Shown: positions 27,498 through 58,986 of the stretch, piece by piece
Layout of the letters: each line of letters opens with the position of its first letter
Position numbering within the stretch: the first letter of the stretch is position 1
Assembly: GCA_963835065.1 (NCBI GenBank)
Contig: CAWIEK010000060.1
Location: 32,001 to 96,000 of the forward strand
Length of the DNA: 64,000 bases
Reading direction: 5' to 3'
Source: an uncultured Chthonomonadaceae bacterium
GTDB lineage: Bacteria > Armatimonadota > Chthonomonadetes > Chthonomonadales > Chthonomonadaceae
The notes under the pieces: model-generated
Told to the model about the DNA's origin: nothing
What the model saw: only the letters and a program-made list of their open reading frames with translations
Database searches by the model: none
Position numbers and translations under genes: made by a program

Positions 27498-28867
27498 TCA
27501 AATGCGTCGGGCGCGTTTGGAAAGGGCTTTTTGCGTGGTCGTGACGGGCTGGCCGGTGGCGACAAAGGCGCGCTGCATCATCTGGAAGAACGCGGCTTTT
27601 TCCGCGCCGCGCACAATCGCCTGCTCGTGCGCTTCGGCCAGCGCGACAGGGTAGCCATCCCCCTTACGCGCCTGATCCCAGCACAGCGTATGCGTGAGTT
27701 GCAGCAGTTCGGGATCGTCACTGACCCATGCGGGGATTTCCACGCGCGCCACTTCCCGCCCGGTGTGCAGGTAAAAGAAGCGGATGCGTTGGGTAGGCGC
27801 GTAAGCGTTGAGGATTTGCGAACGCGACCCGAAAACGGCGGAGCGCTCGCCCGGCTGCAAGCAGGCACGCGAACAAATCGGCATCGCGCACCATTTCGGT
27901 TCCCGCGCACGGCGGCGCGACGTACTCCGGCTTGGGCTTGCTGTGCTGCGGGCAAAATCTATCGCAATTGGACAACTCGTGCGGACACGCAAACACGCGC
28001 AGGGCGTTGACCACATCCCGGCTTTGCGGCGCGCTGATGTACCCCGCAATCGGAACCCGCATTGCTTGCGCCTGCTCCAGTAATCTCTCAAACGCCAGAA
28101 TGGAAGCCGCCCGAAACGCCTCCTGCTCCGTTTCCAGCGGCCATAAGATCAGGCTGCCGTCGAAGAGGGCGATAGTTGATAGTTGATAGTTGATAGTTGA
28201 TAGAGCAGGAAGTGATGAGTGATGAGTGATGAGTGATGAGTGTGCATCCAATTCATCATTCATCATTCCGCGTTCATCACTGTTTTTGCCTGTTCCCTGT
28301 TCCCTGTTCCCTGTTCCCTGTCCTGCTGTCTCCTTTTCTTCTTTTCTCCTTTTCTCCTTTTCTTCCCCTGCTCCCATCAACTCTACCAGCCCTTCCACTT
28401 CAGCGAGCAGGCGGCGGATGGCGAGGCGTTTGGGAACGATGGCGGCTTGTTCGCCTTGAAATTCGTCCAATAGTTCGTCTTCGGGCAGGGCGAGATAGGG
28501 GCGGGAGGTTAGGGTGGCGCGTTCGCCCGTGCCGTAGCGCAGAGCGATCAGGCCGATGTTGAGGAGGTAGCAGAGGGCAATGTCGTGGCGGTCGGAAACG
28601 ATCTGCGAACCATCGGCGGCAAACACGGTGCAGGGCAAAGGGCAAGCAGGAGGCGCGTAAACCACATCGGGCGGCTCGTGCCAGGAAGCGATCAGCCAGG
28701 AGGTTTTGGAGTCGCGGATTTTGCCCCGCGTGGCTTCCCACGTTGGCCCCGAACGCGGTCAAACGCCGCTGCGCTTCCCGCATCGCCGCTTCCAAACGCG
28801 GCAGCGAACTCGCCCGGTCGCTGGCGAAGGTTTGTATTTGCGTGAATACCTGGGTGAAGTCTAGCAT
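27498..28867 (-). CDS. nurA: NurA-family nuclease with frameshifts (~28750, ~27860) and a ~65-aa repeat insertion
   Basis: FAADGSQI, LFDGSLILW, ARVEIPAW, GYPVALAEAHEQAIV spread across ORFs 28400-28939, 27718-28665 and 27498-28091. Confidence 0.85.
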
Positions 28868-35054: not shown

Positions 35055-35407
35055 CAGCAAACCTCCCGCAAAACCAATCCCACAGGAAAAAAGCTAAAAA
35101 ATTAGCGAAAAAGAGCCTTACAACGCCAAAAAAGGTGAACCTTTTACCCCATTCACTCTGTCTATATAGTACAAACGTCTGCTATACAGACGGGAAGGTT
35201 GAACGCTGGTAGTTCCTATCAACTATCAACTATCAACTACTTACTCAGCAAAGGAGGTACAGGCCCATGTCCCACCCCTCCCGTTCGCCCTGACGCCCTT
35301 GAGGTCACGACGCCTCTCTCCTACAACCTGACACAACGAGACATCGGGCTGGAAGCGCTGTATTGCCAAGATTTCGACGATGCCTCTACATACTTCCTTT
35401 TTTCTAC
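35055..35407 (+). other. Dispersed ~355-bp element, copy A (ECF-like promoter, RBS + 8-codon ORF, conserved core; candidate sRNA)
   Basis: Homologous to 55946-56309 (inverted); 35306-35394 is identical to the reverse complement of 55957-56045. Confidence 0.7.
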
Positions 35408-35414
35408 ATACTGT

Positions 35415-37295
35415 TTATCCTCCCACCGCCCAATTCAGCCCCGTATAGCGGCGGTAGCCATAACAGCGGGCGATATGAACGTAGCGGATAGGCGTGGGGC
35501 TGCCGGCGCGGCGGATGGGGAAGGGCGGGTCCCATTCGACGCGCTCAAAGATTTGGCGCAGGTCGTTTACATCGGATTCGCCGTCGTTGAAGAAAATCGC
35601 GTTGTCGCCAAGATGCGCTTCCAATCGTTCCACGTGCGCGGCGTACATCGTCAAGCGCCAGTGCAGGAACATATCGTAAGTGGGCGGATGATCCGGCAGG
35701 TAAAACCCCATCAGGGCGCAATACTGGTAGCCGTTGCCCGCAATAAACACCGGCTGCCCGCTTTTTGCCATGTCCTTCCGAACTTCCTGCACATGCGCCG
35801 CCAAATCGCGCCAGCCATACATCTGCGTAGTCACATCATCTTTAGGCTGCAAGCGTATGCCAACGGCTGACCGCAATTCCGGCGACAGCATCAACACGGT
35901 CAGCAGGGCGCTCGTGAGGAAGATAGTTGATAGTTGATAGTTGATAGTTGATAGAACAGGAAGTGATGAGTGATGAGTGATGAGTGATGAGTGTGCATCC
36001 AATTCATCATTCCTCATTCCGCGTTCAGCATTGTCTTCTGTTCCCTGTTCCCTGTTCCCTGTTCCCTGTTCTTCTGTCTTCTCTTCTTCTTTTCTCTTTT
36101 TCTTCTTTTCTTCCAAGCGAAGCGCCGCCCACCCCGCCCACAAAATAGTCGGCGTGATCCAGGCGCAGGGGGCCCAGTTGGCCTGTACCTGTGACCGCAG
36201 CGCCATCAGACAGAAGAACAGGAGGACGGGGAAGCCGTGACAGAAGAGGAACAAGGTTTCAGGTGTTCGGGTGTTCAGGTGTTCAGATATTGGGTATTCG
36301 GTATTCGGTGTTGCATCGTAGAGTTTGTTTGCTCTGACTTCTTCTGAGGAGGCGCGTGAATACCTGAACACCTGAACACCCGCCGCAACACACGCAAGAA
36401 ACAAGCCGGGGCCGAGCAGGAGGGCTTGCGAACCGATGAATTCACCTAAGCGGGATAGCGGCGTATGTTTGGTTTTGTAGGCCAAGTAGCCCAGATGCCC
36501 GAACGTCCACCAGTGGTGATGCGCGTTCCACCACAGGACACCCACGTACAGCAGCAGGGTTATCAGAAAGGCGGCGTAGGGTTCGGGACGGCGCAGCCAT
36601 TTGCGATGCGGGGGCGAAATCAGCAGGAACAGCAGCAGGCAGGGCAGGAGGAGCAGCATTGTGTGCTTGCTGAGAAACCCCAGCCCGACGGCAAGCCCCG
36701 CCCACAGCCACGCGCGTTTTTGACCGGCTTCGTTGGTTCCGAACAGGGCGCGTTCCAGAAACACGAGCGCCAAAGCCCAGAAGAACACAAGCGGGGGATC
36801 GTAAGTGGCGATAAGGCTGCCGACGGTCAGGAGCGGGGTTGCGGCGAGAAGTACCACCGTCAGAAATCCGGCGAGCGGCGAGAAAATGCGCTTCGCCAGA
36901 ATATACGCGCAGATTAGTGCGCCCAAACAAGAGGCCCATACCCCAATTCTTACCCCGAATTCGTTGGTTCCGAACAGCAGGGTTGTCAGGCGAATCAGAT
37001 AGGCGATGAATGGCCCCTGATCGTAGTATCCCCACGCGAGATGCCGCGACCAATCCCAATAGTAGGCTTCATCCGGCGCGAGTTCCACGCGCCATAATTG
37101 CGTCAGCCGCAGCAGGGAAGTGATTAGCAGGAACCAGAACGTGGCGCGTTCCCAACGGCGTGTTTCGGTGTTCAGGTGTCGGGTGTCGGGTGTCGGGTGT
37201 TCAGGTATTCGGGTGTTCGGGTGTTTGGTATTGGGTGTTTGGGCGTTGTGAAACTCTTTACCGGGATTGATGTTTGTGATTTGGCGTGAAGGCAT
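35415..37295 (-). CDS. ArnT/PMT-like glycosyltransferase (GT-C) with three repeat-derived insertions
   Basis: ELAPDEAYYWDWSRHLAWGYYDQGP, GLGFLSKHT, QANWAP; the ATG overlaps the upstream gene's TAA. Confidence 0.88.
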   Translation of the reverse strand: MPSRQITNINPGKEFHNAQTPNTKHPNTRIPEHPTPDTRHLNTETRRWERATFWFLLITSLLRLTQLWRVELAPDEAYYWDWSRHLAWGYYDQGPFIAYLIRLTTLLFGTNEFGVRIGVWASCLGALICAYILAKRIFSPLAGFLTVVLLAATPLLTVGSLIATYDPPLVFFWALALVFLERALFGTNEAGQKRAWLWAGLAVGLGFLSKHTMLLLLPCLLLFLLISPPHRKWLRRPEPYAAFLITLLLYVGVLWWNAHHHWWTFGHLGYLAYKTKHTPLSRLGEFIGSQALLLGPGLFLACVAAGVQVFRYSRASSEEVRANKLYDATPNTEYPISEHLNTRTPETLFLFCHGFPVLLFFCLMALRSQVQANWAPCAWITPTILWAGWAALRLEEKKKKRKEEEKTEEQGTGNREQGTEDNAERGMRNDELDAHSSLITHHSSLPVLSTINYQLSTIFLTSALLTVLMLSPELRSAVGIRLQPKDDVTTQMYGWRDLAAHVQEVRKDMAKSGQPVFIAGNGYQYCALMGFYLPDHPPTYDMFLHWRLTMYAAHVERLEAHLGDNAIFFNDGESDVNDLRQIFERVEWDPPFPIRRAGSPTPIRYVHIARCYGYRRYTGLNWAVGG

Positions 37296-38333: not shown

Positions 38334-39272
38334 ATGCAAGTCTCACGGAGAAAAGTGAACACAAAACGTTTTCAACGCGCTGCCTTTTTCGCAGCCCTTT
38401 TAACAATGTATGCGGCGGGATCGCATGTCGCCGCGCAAAATAAGTTTGCTAGTAAGGCTTCCAAGACCAGCATACCCCTGATACATATACCGGCGTTGAG
38501 CCAAAAGGAAGCCGAACCGCCTGCCGATGTTACCACATCCGACGCGCATCACCTGTTCCCCTGGGAACAACATGCGCCGGGCGGGAAGCCGGACTCCCTG
38601 GGCGGTTTCTCGATGGTCAATGTAATCGCGGGAGATAAGCAGCACGGCTTGTCCGTCGTGCAGCTTGTGCGCGGCGATGAGCATCTCAAAGAGATCGCGC
38701 TGACATTTGACGACGGGCCGCATCCGCCGTTTACCGAACGCCTGCTGGACTTGCTCAAGCAATTAGATGTGCGGGCAACCTTCTTCGTTGTCGGGCGCAA
38801 GGTGGACGCCGCGCCGGAGATTCTGGCGCGGATGGTGGCGGAGAAACACGATGTCGCCAATCATACGTATCATCATGTAAACCTGAAAACGTTGCCCTAC
38901 GGACTGGTGGAAAACGAGATTCGGCTGGACAATGACGCCATTCGCCGCGCCTGCGGGAAAGAGCCGGTGTTTTTCCGCCCGCCCGGAGGCCAGCGCAACG
39001 GCGAAGTGGTAGAAATCGCCCGCCGCCTGGGGATGAGTACCCTGTTGTGGACGGACGATCCCGCCGATTATGCCAATCCGGGAGCCGACATTATCGAGGA
39101 AAAACTGCTGCAGCATGTGCGCCCCGGCGCGGTCATCCTGCTGCATGACGGCGTAGAGCAGACCTATCAAATGCTGCCCGACTTGGTTGCCAAATTGCGG
39201 CAGCAAGGCTATAAATTCGTCACCGCCACCGAAATGGCGCAGCACCTGGAGGCGTCCAGTCAGACGAAGTGA
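38334..39272 (+). CDS. Polysaccharide deacetylase (NodB/CE4)
   Basis: IALTFDDGPH, ANHTYHH, FFRPPGG, VILLHDG. Confidence 0.92.
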   Translation: MQVSRRKVNTKRFQRAAFFAALLTMYAAGSHVAAQNKFASKASKTSIPLIHIPALSQKEAEPPADVTTSDAHHLFPWEQHAPGGKPDSLGGFSMVNVIAGDKQHGLSVVQLVRGDEHLKEIALTFDDGPHPPFTERLLDLLKQLDVRATFFVVGRKVDAAPEILARMVAEKHDVANHTYHHVNLKTLPYGLVENEIRLDNDAIRRACGKEPVFFRPPGGQRNGEVVEIARRLGMSTLLWTDDPADYANPGADIIEEKLLQHVRPGAVILLHDGVEQTYQMLPDLVAKLRQQGYKFVTATEMAQHLEASSQTK

Positions 39273-39282
39273 TGAGTGATGA

Positions 39283-42200
39283 ATGATGAATGATGAATAT
39301 AGCGAACAGAAAAATGATGAACGAGGAGTGATAAATGATGAACAAAATACAAATTCCAATTCATCACTCATCACTCATCACTCATCACTTCCTACGTTGC
39401 CTGTCTTTTACGACGAGCAGAAACTGCGCTGGCCCTGGCTGAAGCGCATGGCGGTTGTCGGCGGATTGGTGGGGATTTTGGCGGCTGTTGTATTGGCCGT
39501 CAGTGTTTTTGCGCCTGCGCTGCTGCCGCGCAATCCCCTGCCCCGCGCTACAACCGTGCGCGAAATAGGCAATCAAGACCCGATTCTGTCGCATTTTGAA
39601 CAGCGCCCGCACTTGGCGCAAACCAATCCGCCCATGACGCGCCTGCAGCGTCGGCAATTGGGCGTTAAGTTTACGCGAGACCGCCAGAAACTGGAAGCCT
39701 ACACCCGCCGCGAACAAAGCAAAGCCGCGGAAAACGCCCGCCGCGCGCAGGCGTTCCTCCAGCAATGGCCGAACCAGATAAAAGGGCAGGGCCTCACCGC
39801 CGGCGGCGTCATGCCGTTTGGCTACGAGGACGAAGGGAACAGGGAACAGGGAACAGGGAATAGAAAAGAAGAAGAGAAGAAGAGAAGAGAAGAGAAGGCT
39901 CAACACCCGACACCCGACACCCGACACCCAACACCCGTTGTCGCGGCGTTTTACGTGAACTGGGAAGAAACGTCGTGGGCGTCGGCGCAGCATAACATGG
40001 CGCATTTGACGCACTTTTTGCCGGAATGGCTGCATCTGAAACAAAAGGGCGCGGATGTGGGCAGTTCCAATCCCAAAACCCTGCCGTTTCTGGATGCGCG
40101 GGACGACAAGGACAAAACGGACGTTGTCAATCTGGCGCATAGCAACAGTGTGCCGATTGTGGTTTTGCTCAACAATTATACGCGGCCTAAGAACGAGGAA
40201 GAGGGCGAGGGCAAGTGGGATACGGACGCGGTACACGCGCTCGTTTCTGACCCGAAAGCGCGGCGCAATTTTGCGCGGCAGATGCGCGACTGGCTGCTTG
40301 CCAACAAATTGCAGGGCGTCAACATTGATTTTGAGGAAGTGGCGGAACAGGATCGCGACGGCCTGACGCTGTTTATGCGCGAATTGTATACGGCCCTGCA
40401 CCCCGCGAAATTGCTGGTGACGCAGGACGTGCAGGTGGAAGGCGGGGCGTATGACTTTCCCGGTTTGGCGAAATGGAACGACTGGCTTGTGCCGATGTTC
40501 TACGATGAGCATGAGTCCAGCAGCGGGCCGGGCGCAATCGCGGGCATAGATTGGACGCACAAGCATCTGGACGCGCTGCTGTCGCAGGTAGACCCATCTA
40601 AAGTGGTTATGGCGGTGGGACAGCAAGGCTACGATTGGACAAAGGGCGTGGCGGGAACCGAGTCGCTGCGCTACCAGACCGCAGTGGTTACAGCCAAAGA
40701 GTCTTACGACGGTAAGGGCATGGATGGCGTGATTCGCATGGACCCGGCCAGCCTGAACCCGATGTTTACCTATTCCGAGGATACGCTCGACAAGAACAAT
40801 CAGGCGCGGCAGGAGGAGCATACCGTCTGGATGCAGGATGCCGCCAGCGTGTACAACCAATTGCTGCTCGCCCGCCCGCATGGAATACGCGGCGCGGCGT
40901 TGTGGATGCTCGGCGCGGAAGACCCGACGATTTGGAGCTACTACGACAAAAACCTCTGGAACGGCGATTGGAAGCAGATCGTTGCCGGGGGCGCGCTAAA
41001 TACGATTTCTTACGGCGGAACGGGTGAGATTGACTTCACGGCGGAGGGCGAATTGCTCCAGCCCGTTGCCGAGCCGACAAGCGGACAGCGGACAATCACG
41101 CAGGACCCGAAAACGGGCATGATTACGGCGGAAGCGTACAAGATTGACCCCATAACCAACCGGCCCTTGATGCCGTCTTCCTACATCGTGCGTCGCTACG
41201 GGGGCAAAACGGGCAACCCGGCCAAGCAAATCGTGCTGACGTTCGATGATGGCCCCGACCCAACATATACGCCGCAGATACTCGACATTTTGAAGCGGTA
41301 TCACGTTCCCGCCGCGTTCTTCGTTGTCGGCAAAATGGCGGAAGCCAACCCCAACATCGTGCGGCGGATGTGGGATGAGGGGCACGAAATCGGCAACCAT
41401 ACGTGGGATCACCGCGACCTTGCCGAACTGACGCCCACCCATCAGCAGATTGAATTGACGGCAACGGAGCGCGTGATTCAAGCCCTGACCGGACATTCGA
41501 CAACGCTGTTTCGCCCGCCGTATGGCAACGACGTGGAGCCGACAACGGGGGCGGAAGTGCGCCCGCTCGATCTCGCCGCGCAGATGAACTACCTGACAGT
41601 CGGGCAAAAGATTGATCCGCTGGATTGGGCGCTGTACAAGTTCAAGCCGGGAACCGAGGCTTTTGATTACACGCAGCCCAAAACCGCGCAGGATATTGTC
41701 AATGGCGTGTGGGCGGAAAAGGATCAGGGCAGCATCGTTTTGCTGCACGACGCGGGCGGCGACCGAACGCATACGGTTGCCGCATTGCCGCAGATTATCG
41801 AAAAACTGCGGGCGGGCGGCTATACGTTCGTATCCGTGTCGCAGTTAAGCGGCATACCCCGCGAAAAACTGATGCCACCGATTACGGGTAAGGACATTTA
41901 TCTCGCGGGCGGCGACCGCATGACGTTTGAAGCGGCGTATCTGTTCCAGATTACGCTGACGACCCTGTTCATGCTGTCCATCGTGCTTGGCACTTCGCGG
42001 GTGCTGCTGTTCGTGGGATTGGCGCTGATACAGCGGCAGCGCGAAAAAAAGCGCGTGTTCCCCGTGGGGTTTACGCCTTCCGTGTCGGTCATTATCGCCG
42101 CGTACAATGAGGAAAAGGTCATCGGGCGCACGATACAGGCATTGCTCGACAGCGGCTATCCGAATCTGGAAATCATCGTCGTAGACGACGGCAGCAAGGA

Positions 42201-54184: not shown

Positions 54185-55150
54185 GTGGTGGACGTACAAC
54201 AATCCTCTCTCTTTGACTTTCCGCCCGATCTGGAAGGCCAGAAAAACGCTCTGACGACGGCCCTGCAAATTGTGCAGGACTTTGCGCTGTACATCGTTGT
54301 CTCGGAACCGTCGCGCGTCCGCCCGCGCCTGATGCGCGAAATGGAGGCGCGGCTTGGCGGCAAGACTATACAGCATATTGTCGTTCCAAAAGAAACCAGA
54401 AACCTCCTCCATCTGCTTGCCGACAATCTGACCGACCCTTTGCCCGACATCGTGTTTGTCTACGGCCTTGAAAACAGCATTTCCGCGTCCGCAGAACCCC
54501 GCTCTCATCCCCTGCTTCTAAACCTGAACGCTGCCCGAAACAATTTTTATGCTCTGCTGCCGCGCCCCATGGTACTGTGGATTCCCGCCTTTGTCTTAAA
54601 GGCTATTGTCGAGGCCGCGCCGGATTTCATTTCGGTGCGAAGCGGCGTGTACACGTTCCCCTTAAACTCTGATGAACGCCGGGAAATGGCTGATTCTGCC
54701 TTAATCATTGGTCAAACAAAACTGCTTGGTTTAGAATACATGGAGGGGGAAGCCCGAATCAGAGAGATGCTTAGTCTCTTATCAGAATACCGTTCGCTCC
54801 CGACACACGCGCGCAGTTCACAGGACGAAGCGCGAATTTTGAATCAATTGGCGCTTGCTTATCATGCTATAGGTAACTACTCGGAAGCGGAGCCATTGTT
54901 CACCGAAGTATTGGCAATACGGCGTCAGAGGTTGCCTGAAGGACATGCGGACATTGCAAACAGCCTCAACAACCTGGCAGCGCTTTACGATGCACAGGGG
55001 CGCTATCAGGAAGCGGAGCCACTATACAAGGAAGCTTTGAAGATTATTCGTAAGATTTTGGGAGAGGAACATCCACAAACAAAAAGTTTTATTACAAACT
55101 TGGAGAGGTTCCTTGCTGACAAAACCAAGCGTGATTTTGCTTCTGAATAA
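54185..55150 (+). CDS. TPR protein with an N-terminal degenerate P-loop-like domain
   Basis: VFVYGLE..LNLNAAR..AAPDFISVRSG followed by kinesin-light-chain-type TPRs (SLNNLAALY.AQGRY.EAEPLY). Confidence 0.8.
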   Translation: MVDVQQSSLFDFPPDLEGQKNALTTALQIVQDFALYIVVSEPSRVRPRLMREMEARLGGKTIQHIVVPKETRNLLHLLADNLTDPLPDIVFVYGLENSISASAEPRSHPLLLNLNAARNNFYALLPRPMVLWIPAFVLKAIVEAAPDFISVRSGVYTFPLNSDERREMADSALIIGQTKLLGLEYMEGEARIREMLSLLSEYRSLPTHARSSQDEARILNQLALAYHAIGNYSEAEPLFTEVLAIRRQRLPEGHADIANSLNNLAALYDAQGRYQEAEPLYKEALKIIRKILGEEHPQTKSFITNLERFLADKTKRDFASE

Positions 55151-55725: not shown

Positions 55726-55945
55726 GGGTTCGTAGCGCCAAATCCGCGCTGACAAAAGCAAAGTCTATTCTCTCTGTCGTTCCTTTCACCCGCGCCAACA
55801 CTGCCGATAGACACCACCGCACACTTACATGAAACCGCTTCCACCGCAACCCTTGTCTGAGATGTCTATTAGTACCGCTGCGACATCCTGTTGGCCGCCA
55901 CCCGTATTGCAACGGGAAGTCCTGCAAGCGTTGGAAGAGCGGTAA

Positions 55946-56309
55946 GTAGAAAAAAGAGTATGTAGAGGCATCGTCGAAATCTTGGCAATACAGCGCTTCC
56001 AGCCCGATGTCTCGTTGTGTCAGGTTGTAGGAGAGAGGCGTCGTGGCCTCGAAAGCGTCAAGGCGGATGGGAGGGGTGAAACATAGGACTGGCACCTCCC
56101 TTCTTGGTTAGGGTTTTAGGGTTCTAGGGTTTTAGGTTGATAGTTGATAGGAACTGCGAACGTTCAGCCTTCCTGTGTGTCTAACATCTGAATAACAGAC
56201 CTTATTCTACTGTTTAGACGGCTATACGTGGCAAAGGGTTCACAGATTTCGCGTTGTTTTGCTCTTTTTTCTATCTTTTTTCTGGATTGTTTTTGCGGGA
56301 GGGTTGCTG
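55946..56309 (-). other. Dispersed ~355-bp element, copy B
   Basis: Inverted homologue of 35055-35407. Confidence 0.7.
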
Positions 56310-56508
56310 TTGGCGTCGCGCGGGGAACGAGGAAGGGGCACTTGCTAACTTACCAATAATGGTAATTGAATATTGAGCAATTACATAAGAATTAAGTTGC
56401 GTTAGCCCTGTTGTCTTCGCCGCTTCGCCCGAAGTTGGGTACGAAATACGGGTATAATATTAAGTAAGCAACAATTCACAACAGGGGTAAAAGGACACAG
56501 AAGTCGTT

Positions 56509-57201
56509 ATGAGCCAGAACGCCACTCCGGGAATAGGGACTCGCGCCTTCATCAGCCACAACAGCAAGGACAAACCGTTTGTTCGCACTCTGGAAGCCGA
56601 TTTGCAAGCGAATGGTTGCACGGCCTGGGTGGACGAAAACCAGATGTATGCGGGCGATTCGCTGCTGCAAGGAATTTCAACCGGCCTGCAGAACAACGGT
56701 TACGTACTTGCCGTATTTTCAGCCCATTTTGCGGCGTCGAATTGGGCGCAACAAGAAATTTCGGCAGCAGTTGCTATGCAAAACAGTGGCAAGGGAATCA
56801 AAGTCATTGTCTTGCGGCTCGATGATACACCTTTGCCTGCTTTGCTGCAAGGCAGTATCTACGTTGATTTTCGCGGCGATTATACTGCCGGCCTGAACCA
56901 ACTCCTCCGCGCGCTCACCCGTCCCGTTGCCACACCCATACAAGCCCCCGTCACTTTGTCTGTAGACCGTGCCAAACTTGTTGCGGTACTCAATAGTTTG
57001 GATAGCGTGTCGCTAACAAGCGTCATCAATCACATTGCTGGTGCGGGTACGCATGACAGTCCTCTACAGCCCGTGCCAATACGAGTTCAGGCGTTGCTCG
57101 GATTTGCCGAAGGCGCAGTCGGGCCTGGCCTGAACGCGGTTGCATCCGTCGTTGTGCAGTTGTTCCCTAATACGGCCTCTAAAATCGGCCCTTTCCGTTA
57201 A
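56509..57201 (+). CDS. TIR-domain protein with a C-terminal helical (effector-associated/Death-like) domain; 0-frame product
   Basis: AFISHNSKDK, WVDE...GDS, SNWAQQE (catalytic Glu), YVDF; C-terminal RVQALLGFAEGAVGPGL helical unit. Confidence 0.88.
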   Translation: MSQNATPGIGTRAFISHNSKDKPFVRTLEADLQANGCTAWVDENQMYAGDSLLQGISTGLQNNGYVLAVFSAHFAASNWAQQEISAAVAMQNSGKGIKVIVLRLDDTPLPALLQGSIYVDFRGDYTAGLNQLLRALTRPVATPIQAPVTLSVDRAKLVAVLNSLDSVSLTSVINHIAGAGTHDSPLQPVPIRVQALLGFAEGAVGPGLNAVASVVVQLFPNTASKIGPFR

Positions 57202-57231
57202 GCCCTGCCGTTTCCGGCACAACGACAGGGC
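57189..57231 (+). promoter_or_regulatory. Candidate -1 programmed ribosomal frameshift signal
   Basis: In-frame X XXY YYZ heptamer C CCT TTC (57189-57195), 6-nt spacer containing the TAA, stem-loop GCCCTGCCGTT-tccggcac-AACGACAGGGC (57202-57231); the -1 frame is open into NB-ARC. Confidence 0.65.
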
Positions 57232-58986
57232 GTTCGACACTGCCAACATTCAATGCGTACTTTACGGGACGTGAATGCCAGATGAACGACTTGCGCACTG
57301 CTCTGACAAGTGGCGGATCGGCGGCGGTGACGCAGGCGATCTCCGGTTTGGGCGGCGTGGGGAAAACCGCGCTTGCCGTCGAGTACGCGCATATTTATCG
57401 TGACCACTACGATACGCTGCTTTTTGCCCTCGCTGACTCCATTACCTCGCTGAACAGCGCTTATAAAGCTATCGCCGCGCAGTTGGGATTGCCGCAGGCC
57501 GCAAGCGATGATTTTGAAGTTGTGGCACAGGCGGTAAAACACCATCTGAACACGGCAACGCCCTCCCGCAAAGGCATTACACCTTACCTGTTGATTTTGG
57601 ACAACGCCGACTTTGGCACAACGCTCAAGCCCAACGATCTAAAAAGATTTCTACCCAATACCCCGACCGGTCATGTGCTGCTGACAACGCGCGCTCAAGT
57701 CCTGCATGGCGGGTTGGGTGTAAAGCCAAACCACGTCCTGCGCCTGGACGTAATGGTGGAGGAAGAGGCGTTTCGTTTTCTGGCAGAGCGCGTAGGCGGC
57801 GAGGGCGCGATACGGACGGGCGATGAGGCAACAGCGGCCTCAGAACTGGCGCGTGAGTTAGGGTATCTGCCGTTAGCGCTGGAGCAGGCGGCGGCCTACA
57901 TCGCGCAGCCAAGTCGTACCTTTCGCAACTACCTGAACCTGTACCGCAAGCGTTCGATTGAGGTTGTGGAACGCAACGCGCCGGAAACGGGAGATTATAA
58001 CAAAACAGTAGCGACGACGTGGCAAATCAGTTTTGATGAGGTAGAGCGCGAATGTTCGGCGGCGGCGGACTTGCTGCGCCTGTGCGCGTTTGTTGCCCCG
58101 GACTCTATCCCCATAGAAGTGATTTTAGCAGCAGCGAACGGTGAGGTGGAAAGCATTACGACGTTCTTTGGAATTTTGGAAGATACTGAAGTCAACAAGG
58201 ACAATGGCAATACTTTGCTGCAAGCGCTGGCACGTTACTCCCTGATAATGTGGAAGCATGAGTCGCATACGTTCAATGTGCATCGGTTGGTGCAGGCTGT
58301 AACACGCTGGCAGATGAAAGCGGATATACGGCAAGCATGGATAAAACAAGCAGTAAACGTCTTGAACTTGGCATTTCCGAACTCTGATTTTGAGAATTGG
58401 ACACGATGTGAACGACTAACTGCTCACGCACAAGCACTAGAGAAATTGTCTCAGAAAAGACGAGCATTGCAGCGACTCGGTAACACTGCTGGGCCGCATC
58501 GCTTCTTACTTGTATCAGCGTGGGCGCTATGAGGAAGCGGAGCCACTTTATAAAGAGGTATTAGCAGTTTATCGGAAAAATTTACTCTCAAATCACCGAG
58601 AATTTGCTGTTTATCTTAACAATCTGGCAGTGCTTTATAATACGCAGGGGCGTTATGTAGAGGCAGAAGCACTAATCAACGAAGTGTTAGCATTACGGCG
58701 TAAGAACCTGCCGGAAAATCATCCCGATGTTGCAAACAGTCTTAACAATCTGGCAGCAGTTTACCATAAGCAGGGGCGCTATGTGGAAGCCGAGGTTTCC
58801 TACAAAGAAGCCGTAGTTATTCTGCGCATTAAATTTGGAGATGACCATCCAAATACAAAATTTGTCGCTGAGAACCTGAAAACATTCCTTGCTGAGAAGA
58901 AAGAGCGTACTGCCTTTGTGCAACATTTCAAACTGCCGACTTCACTTTCAAAACAGCGGCAATACCGTTTGAAACGGCCCAAATAA
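57189..58986 (+). CDS. NB-ARC (STAND) ATPase + TPR (-1 frame continuation of the TIR ORF; additional frameshift near 58450)
   Basis: LPTFNAYFTGRE lies upstream of ATG 57282 in the same frame; GLGGVGKT, LILDNAD, LLTTR, GYLPLALEQAAAY, VHRLVQ; TPRs in 58510-58986. Confidence 0.85.

Follow-up and report, generated by a model that had tools for sequence, protein, structure and literature searches.

A dispersed RNA gene with an Arg-x-Pro-stop micro-ORF, partly spread as transposon cargo and bordered on one side by accessory DNA in a Chthonomonadaceae genus

The 64,000-nt stretch of Chthonomonadaceae DNA analysed here (the window) contains two similar intergenic segments on opposite strands. The first-pass annotation had listed the same order of motifs for both, namely upstream blocks, an ECF-like promoter, a ribosome-binding site with a micro-ORF, a hairpin, an invariant core and a T-rich end, and all of these parts are present where it had placed them, in copy 1 on the + strand as well as in copy 2 on the - strand (55946-56309). 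Likewise, the annotated 89-nt core is exact, the longest identical stretch between both copies comprising precisely 89 nt (35306-35394, corresponding to 56045-55957); this 89-mer is borne by these two copies only, out of the 162 of the family described below. The copies and their surroundings are composed as follows.

35055..35136, + strand: copy 1, 5' spacer and UP-element-like A-tract, common to the transposon-borne subfamily (pairwise identity 0.70, below that of the core)
35137..35164, + strand: copy 1, putative ECF-like promoter with a GAACC-type -35 (35137-35143) and a GTCTA -10 (35160-35164)
35176..35184, + strand: copy 1, second GTCT(A/G)C motif, 11-15 nt 3' of the -10
35193..35237, + strand: copy 1, optional linker hairpin and (CTATCAA)n filler (20/162 and 48/162 copies)
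35251..35257, + strand: copy 1, Shine-Dalgarno (SD) sequence AAGGAGG (9-10 nt to the ATG in 145 of the 158 copies with both found)
35267..35293, + strand: copy 1, 8-codon ORF MSHPSRSP-stop with Arg-x-Pro-stop end (Pro at -1 in 160/160 own and 43/45 relatives' copies)
35301..35316, + strand: copy 1, hairpin P2 with compensatory stems, 7 nt 3' of the stop
35317..35337, + strand: copy 1, A/C-rich unpaired linker (20-24 nt)
35338..35386, + strand: copy 1, long irregular hairpin P3 with the invariant apical AGCGCTGYATTGCCA at 35354-35368 (pairwise identity 0.97)
35387..35405, + strand: copy 1, CATA end and pyrimidine tail, adjoining the stop codon (35415) of a convergent PMT_2 gene
56214..56345, - strand: copy 2, 5' spacer, A-tract and ECF-like promoter (-35 at 56234-56241, -10 at 56214-56220)
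56058..56100, - strand: copy 2, SD (56095-56100) and ORF MFHPSHPP-stop (56058-56084)
55959..56050, - strand: copy 2, P2 (56035-56050), linker, P3 (55965-56013) and CATA end
55907..55958, - strand: copy 2, 3' extension, an inner remnant of an ISAzo13-derived MITE at its end (the same sequence stands 5' of the right terminal repeat in cassettes)
56509..58986, + strand: accessory islet upstream of copy 2, outside the repeat, with TIR, NB-ARC and TPR ORFs (Pfam)

Rather than a duplicated element, as first annotated, the copies belong to a dispersed family. A genome-wide BLAST search with positions 35280-35400 (E ≤ 1e-3) retrieved 162 intergenic copies of 80-100% identity from the 8.0-Mb genome holding the window (G000), a number well above any chance level, with four pairs of copies lying inside longer duplicated segments. 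Gene calls made with our own caller, in which 13 copies were wrongly taken for ORFs, place a divergent gene upstream of 98 of 158 copies and a convergent gene downstream of 90 of 161, while the downstream genes lack a common family (230 singletons) and a search for a partner gene next to the copies found none. The +1 frame scored as coding by the caller was rejected, its conservation extending to third positions and the frame being broken. For comparison, two congeners (G001 and G002) were used. A covariance model (73 candidates scored per genome) detected at least 46 full copies and one fragment in G002 and 13 copies in G001, but no copy in a further 38 genomes from the family and, with strict filters and 19 candidates each, none in 150 genomes of the phylum; a weak DNA match in one genome (G053) was not confirmed by covariance model R1. 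Among the genomes searched, the element is restricted to one genus. A pattern search of genome contigs gave at least 43 matches, 30 labelled Chthonomonadaceae and 13 being chance matches to the motif only, and among the matches listed those with the full pattern are all labelled Chthonomonadaceae. The full pattern had no match in viral contigs and none in metagenomes, where the short motif gave 98 matches and none of the 80 fetched fitted model R1. In Rfam, no match was obtained for the window at gathering score, and E ≤ 10 gave only chance matches outside the core. A 197-nt contig from one soil metatranscriptome covers a relative's copy from linker to P3, but is not counted as evidence, being unstranded, of depth 5.6 and from a single study, at a place where the repeat would break a contig anyway.

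The short frame could be parsed in 160 own copies (two remained unparsed) and 45 distinct copies from relatives. The invariably (own) or almost invariably (relatives) final Pro is encoded by CCC, CCT, CCG and CCA alike, and the third-last codon is Arg in 149 of the 160 own and 40 of the 45 relatives' copies, with all four CGN codons in use, and otherwise His or Leu. Stop codons of the 205 parsed copies are TGA (177), TAA (27, with 22 in the 45 relatives' copies) and TAG (1), an in-frame ATG stands 8 or 9 codons upstream in 192 (153 own, 39 from relatives), and the spacer between stop and P2 measures 7 nt in 200. Indels in the ORF come in 3-nt units, those in the linker after P2 in steps of 1 nt. 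Among 5180 ordinary genes, only 0.7% terminate with R-x-P-stop. As the changes at Pro, Arg and stop are synonymous, selection acts on translation; the ORF is under selection as protein code, and the frame is very probably translated, giving peptides of 8-9 aa rich in Pro, Ser and His.

The first-pass annotation had missed this Arg-x-Pro-stop rule as well as two features described below, the transposon ends and the association with accessory DNA on one side only. Two of its proposals for the ORF were not borne out. Sequestration of the SD by the ORF is not general, with a pairing probability above 0.5 in 42% of the 162 own and 15% of 48 relatives' copies, and the suggested product of +1 slippage has no common stop, its frame being broken in 28 of 160 own copies and the linker carrying 1-nt indels. 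SECIS-dependent readthrough was rejected likewise, given TAA in 27 and TAG in one of the 205 copies and linker indels breaking the frame. When the Pro codon occupies the P site, the first base of P2 is at +14, which is about where the leading edge of a ribosome lies. Pro-stop slows termination and R/HxPP stalls ribosomes, as outlined in 10.1101/751305 and PMC10951233, and by analogy stalling at the Arg-x-Pro-stop of the element is likely. In G001, a subfamily of five of the 13 copies (L007, L010, L013, L016, L022) has another promoter region and a different, longer and structured leader with GTG, CTG or TTG starts and 15 codons; an R-P-P-stop end is kept in four of these and the frame is broken in the fifth.

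For the RNA following the ORF, 48 copies were compared. Here, 97.6% of the cells are paired and 4 of 18 pairs are altered on both sides. Four different stems were seen for P2, namely GAGG/CCUC, GUGG/CCAC, UCGGC/GCCGA and GAGGC/GUCUC. Covariation reached 0.116, with shuffles at 0.074 (0 of 500) and slid controls never above 0.064, although the independent events are few and phylogenetically clustered, as most of the double compensations stem from a single small subfamily. Folding energy is ordinary (z values of -0.61 and +0.43). On this comparative evidence, the two-hairpin fold is in all likelihood real. The invariant 15-mer AGCGCTGYATTGCCA has neither match nor complement outside the copies in the genome searched. 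That P3, a weak and irregular stem, is so conserved in sequence suggests a putative protein-binding surface.

Upstream of the frame, the motif AAC-N15-19-YGTCTA is found in 145 of the 162 copies, and another motif, GTCT(A/G)C, follows the -10 at a distance of 11-15 nt; the GAAC-N16/17-GTC pattern seen here we take to be an ECF sigma consensus. A multicopy, promoter-bearing and structured RNA with a real micro-ORF, as initially suspected, is corroborated by promoter, codon pattern and covariation, the latter observed in few clustered events and with no Rfam match. Genome-wide, 137 of 199 strict promoter matches coincide with elements, compared to 28 in a base shuffle, and with about 70% of them at copies, induction of the corresponding sigma factor would mostly yield this RNA. 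No cognate ECF sigma factor was found, the loose upstream matches at 3 of 49 sigma genes being close to the background of 72 in 1453. About 28 intergenic sites in G000 show the GAAC...GTCT pattern 5' of several apparently secreted-protein genes, possibly an envelope regulon, at counts near chance. In one promoter-only copy (L131:200-400, G000:C54:109104), the 5' half is intact, and REP-like sequence stands in place of SD, ORF and core. The linker between promoter motifs and SD is of very variable length and consists of optional modules and simple repeats. Accordingly, the upstream blocks annotated as conserved do occur in both window copies, but the CAGCAA block (30/162 copies) and GGAAGGYTGAACG (20/162), like CTATCAACTATCAAC (48/162, with 314 genome-wide matches), are optional subfamily or filler sequence. 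At the opposite end, the annotated T-rich stretch is present but does not constitute a canonical intrinsic terminator, none being found on the + strand at the tail.

A motif common to both flanks of the element turned out to belong to a MITE of 78-108 bp with TAA/TTA as target, of which it forms the arm; a circular or LTR-like unit was therefore rejected. The same ends border two intact 1361-bp IS copies (L126, G000:C53:451924-453284; L127, C41:162053-163413), one having a 99.6% identical fragment elsewhere, with a transposase of the ISAzo13 family (PF07592, E 7e-105) encoded by two ORFs joined at an A-run frameshift site. A match of the core to a known IS end, named at first as a refuting condition, was negative for the core itself, whereas IS ends do flank one subfamily. 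The right terminal repeat was found at 36 of the 162 copies, 140-325 nt downstream, with TAA or TTA next to it in 24 of these 36; 11 copies have a 5' MITE remnant, six are enclosed in units of 437-644 bp, two of the six with perfect TTA duplications, and 122 show no transposon end. The latter include both window copies; at copy 2, the terminal repeat itself is lost, the terminal-repeat search giving no match there. In 32 co-moved cassettes, identity declines from P3 (0.97) via P2 (0.93), ORF (0.81), promoter (0.79) and terminal repeat (0.70) to the sequence outside (0.56). The IS is present in G000 (162 copies of the element) and, with the same ends, in G002 (at least 46 copies), but PF07592 was not found in G001 (13 copies). 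As the element exists there without the IS, the gene is older than the IS, by which one subfamily was amplified, and the ISAzo13 ends and target triplets in that subfamily argue for spread as transposon cargo. Most probably, therefore, it was moved as ISAzo13 cargo, the ends decaying subsequently while promoter, ORF tail and hairpins were kept. The cassettes consist of a passenger between IS ends with target duplication and have an intact partner transposase, trans-mobilisation being putative; the transposon part is thus of a known kind, and the cassettes of this subfamily classify by their sequence as mobile insertion cassettes. About 30 IS-derived 78-108 bp MITEs occur as well, several holding REP-like GTAG hairpins. 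Other mobile elements were rejected as partners: for an IS110 bridge RNA, PF01548 was not found in G000 or G001, and a Y1 transposase is present in 5 of 5 genomes tested, with or without the element. At seven orthologous sites of G000 and G002, the orthologue ranks only 56-95 of 160 in six cases, so that copies have been overwritten in place by paralogues; promoters upstream of the RNA are also converted.

The two sides of the element differ in their DNA. At copy 2, the upstream TIR/NB-ARC/TPR genes were not found in G001 or G002 by DNA at 1e-30 and the downstream gene is found, with different DNA beyond it in both relatives. The copy 1 site is empty in G002, the same two genes facing each other there over REP-like repeats. 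The TIR, NB-ARC and TPR domains of an NLR-like protein are distributed over three consecutive ORFs (56509-58986), and a further TPR gene is located at 54185-55150 of the window. In G000, GC content is 0.026 higher downstream than upstream, with this sign at 107 of 146 copies (0 of 20000 sign permutations). The upstream dip spans about 4 kb, and the polarity is seen in all four gene-orientation classes, is about zero at control intergenic sites and is the same with and without the terminal repeat (0.027 vs 0.026). For the 45 of 46 full G002 copies whose orientation could be assigned, G000 shares 32% of the 3 kb on the upstream side compared to 76% on the downstream side (36/45, p = 2e-6), the values being 35% and 65% for the 26 copies not pre-chosen (19/26, p = 0.003) and, in the same direction without being significant, 21% and 41% in G001 (7/13, p = 0.11), with the significance overstated by these p-values because the copies are kin. 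The G002 flanks have GC contents of 0.538 upstream and 0.591 downstream. Of 62 upstream ORFs at 14 pre-chosen G002 loci, 56 were scanned against Pfam, omitting 6 short ones; the scan gave no family for 32 and, for others, DNA methylases, AbiEii-type ATPase, caspase-FGE, CHAT/TPR, IrrE-HTH and QueC, besides dehydrogenases, a transporter and a glycosyltransferase. Altogether, the upstream side is low-GC, species-specific DNA, often with conflict-type genes.

Spacing of the copies is likewise non-random. Neighbouring copies less than 10 kb apart were observed 4 times versus 27 expected (0 of 2000 simulations), compared to 18 versus 10 and 15 versus 16 for two control repeats. Median gaps amount to 47.5 kb for back-to-back, 36.3 kb for tandem and 21.2 kb for face-to-face pairs (n = 20, 58 and 27; p = 8e-4), as if each upstream side added about 10 kb. 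The polarity is explained by none of the structures looked for, namely an integrase, a left transposon end or split copies, with six tyrosine recombinases for 162 copies and no upstream excess of the left terminal repeat (9 vs 6 downstream). An integron or integrase attB site, which should have an integrase next to it and split copies at the ends of islands, was rejected, one promoter-only fragment being seen. For polar T6SS arrays, the published model combines an anchor providing homology with an illegitimate joint at the far end, an event described as rare in the accessible text of PMC5361080, and we extend it to the element by inference.

In comparison with known systems, the element resembles prokaryotic MITEs and cassettes (Correia, QMITE1/2 and MIC, as outlined in PMC10969869, PMC5896051 and PMC5444012) in being short, intergenic, of high copy number and without transposase, and one subfamily is framed by IS-derived terminal repeats with target duplication, for which an intact partner IS of the ISAzo13 family exists. 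In contrast to a MITE, for which membership features are given in the accessible text of PMC10969869, its core has no IS origin and is present in G001 without PF07592, it thus predates the IS link and outlives the ends (none in 122/162 copies, with only 6/162 enclosed by terminal repeats), and it is selected at codons and base pairs. With the RAPP/RxPP peptides ApdA, ApdP and SecM, it shares R or H two residues before the P-site Pro, and with the termination stalls of TnaC and PepNL the Pro-stop ending. Unlike in RAPP peptides, the A-site position is taken not by Pro or Gly but by a stop in 205/205 parsed copies, the peptide is stand-alone with 8-9 residues, a conserved RNA domain follows, and the 160 copies are not leaders of a regulated gene of the secDF/yidC type, the downstream gene being convergent in 90/161 and of no common family. 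Multicopy sRNAs and type I toxin-antitoxin mRNAs, too, exist in several copies with their own promoter, a short ORF and a structured 3' part, and the latter are defined by a hydrophobic toxin peptide and an antisense antitoxin RNA. The element differs by its tenfold higher copy number, hydrophilic, Pro/Ser/His-rich peptides of 8-9 aa and the lack of an Rfam match at gathering score, and no conserved antisense unit was seen, the 3' flanks being variable. Toxic minigenes (lambda bar; PMC2490762, accessible text) are similar in strong SD, very short ORF and possible drain of one tRNA as peptidyl-tRNA, but have 2-8 codons, exert their effect mostly under limiting Pth and lack a conserved downstream structure. 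Fixed-anchor recombination, as outlined for V. cholerae T6SS arrays and Rhs in PMC5361080, likewise places new DNA on one side of a conserved stretch; here, in contrast to T6SS and integron accretion, the anchor would be a dispersed RNA gene at about 160 sites without adjacent integrase or cassette repeats. Retron ncRNAs are described in the accessible text of PMC7736814 and PMC13712802 as RT-adjacent and closed by a1/a2 repeats, to which the element does not conform, the SD-tail duplex of a copy reaching -8.35 kcal/mol compared to -8.31 kcal/mol with another copy's tail. The RNA gene and its polarity fell outside each of the classes tested. A literature search over listings and the beginnings of abstracts, in which subscription journals are largely absent, found no description of the element.

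Combining these lines, the ECF-like promoter would likely drive an RNA of 150-250 nt under stress, the 8-9 codon frame would likely hold a ribosome 7 nt before a two-hairpin domain predicted to bind protein, and incoming accessory DNA would likely use the copies as recombination anchors on one side. This entire reading of a stress-induced RNA, with a ribosome held at Pro-stop before a predicted protein-binding domain and with copies as anchors, is put forward tentatively, as a good possibility. Homology among all copies would allow a donor to recombine in, overwrite a resident copy and carry its upstream islet along; recombination of donor copies could in this way explain both the overwriting and the one-sided accessory DNA, an account we regard as nearly probable. 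Element RNA might additionally serve as a dose-dependent sink for ribosomes and tRNA-Pro and thereby as a stress brake on translation, which is conceivable but rather doubtful; a tRNA drain by minigenes is, in the accessible text of PMC2490762, not seen in wild-type Pth backgrounds. A still wider reading, in which a new class of dispersed, ribosome-loaded RNA gene parks ribosomes at Arg-x-Pro-stop, binds a protein by the invariant loop of its RNA and at the same time steers the uptake of foreign, often defence-type DNA to its upstream side at about 160 spaced sites, as an integrase-free, genome-wide counterpart of the integron, appears unlikely. Altogether, the data suggest a so far undescribed element, acting as RNA and likely assisting the entry of genes into the chromosome.

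Alternatively, the element might be selfish at the RNA level, ribosome and hairpins serving its own stability and spread and the 3' end being the fixed end of a one-ended mobile unit with upstream cargo, which would yield the polarity with no gain for the host. Such a unit would fit the joint insertions of cargo and element seen, in comparison with G000, at L306 (7.2 kb), L303 and L301, the presence of a G000 copy at only 10 of 36 orthologous junctions, the empty copy 1 site in G002 and a copy number tracking the IS, yet the left terminal repeat is not in excess upstream, the GC polarity does not depend on the terminal repeat, no cargo is common to copies beyond the four duplicated segments, and an IS91-type transposase was not found in a search run without positive control; we consider this explanation unlikely, albeit a serious one. 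In attenuation of the TnaC type, control is exerted via Rho loading. Being a tnaC-like cis boundary or attenuator, the element would have the stalled ribosome cover a C-rich Rho-loading stretch and so control transcription into, or antisense to, downstream core genes, and its Pro-stop end, the C/A-rich and G-poor linker, the failure to find an intrinsic terminator and the orientation of copies towards conserved core DNA are compatible with this, as is the description of TnaC in the accessible text of PMC11890864 as preventing termination and hence controlling a downstream gene. However, the gene downstream of the element is convergent at 90 of 161 copies and belongs to no common family (230 singletons), and an invariant 15-nt loop would be needless for attenuation, making this role quite improbable.

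An ordinary MITE-like repeat, with promoter, ORF and hairpins as passive remnants kept alike by gene conversion, would account for transposon ends on 40 of the 162 copies, for conversion at orthologous sites and for a genome rich in small repeats. It is contradicted by the exclusively synonymous changes at Pro, Arg and stop, by ORF indels of 3 nt as opposed to linker indels of 1 nt, by compensatory stems and by the family in G001 without the IS, so that this very improbable reading is already largely refuted. No more credence can be given to a base-pairing trans sRNA blocking the SDs of targets with CCTCTCTCCT, which had been annotated as an anti-SD seed: the motif is found in both window copies and in 80 of the 162 own copies, but its first four bases are paired in the P2 hairpin, it varies freely in relatives, and the invariant loop lacks a 15-nt match or complement elsewhere in the genome. 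Finally, the copies might be non-autonomous substrates of a genus-wide type XIII retron RT whose cDNA converts them. The RT occurs in all three genomes, and two words of 10-11 nt are common to the core and the retron ncRNA array; against this, the retron has its own tandem msr-msd-like units, where model R1 gives a best E of 2.2, one word varies among the retron units and the other among element copies, 4 genomes lacking the element likewise have the RT, and conversion includes promoters upstream of the RNA, which renders the idea extremely improbable.

Arrest peptides have so far been single leaders of one operon, and high-copy repeats are usually taken as inert MITEs. In contrast, about 220 natural variants of a selected, stand-alone frame of 8-9 codons provide a ready mutational scan of whether R-x-P plus stop stalls termination and of what a hairpin 7 nt on contributes, and the one-sidedness offers a testable answer to where new and defence genes land in genomes without integrons.

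Several other features were noticed in these genomes. A type XIII retron operon (ARM, SWIM-BRCT, RT) is located at L271:5950-6950 (G000:C50, about 59.7-60.6 kb) and also at L272 and L273; it is preceded by tandem msr-msd-like units, three in G000, three in G002 and two in G001, with conserved branch-site and closing arms and differing long hairpins. At L260 (G000:C49:680160-683777), a second RT is found next to a Cas1-like ORF and is likely CRISPR-associated. The window itself contains many tandem repeats of 7-8 nt, often as inverted pairs, within and between genes, for example at 28165-28366, 35916-36114 and 39257-39393, with a 122-nt block occurring at both 28165 and 35916.
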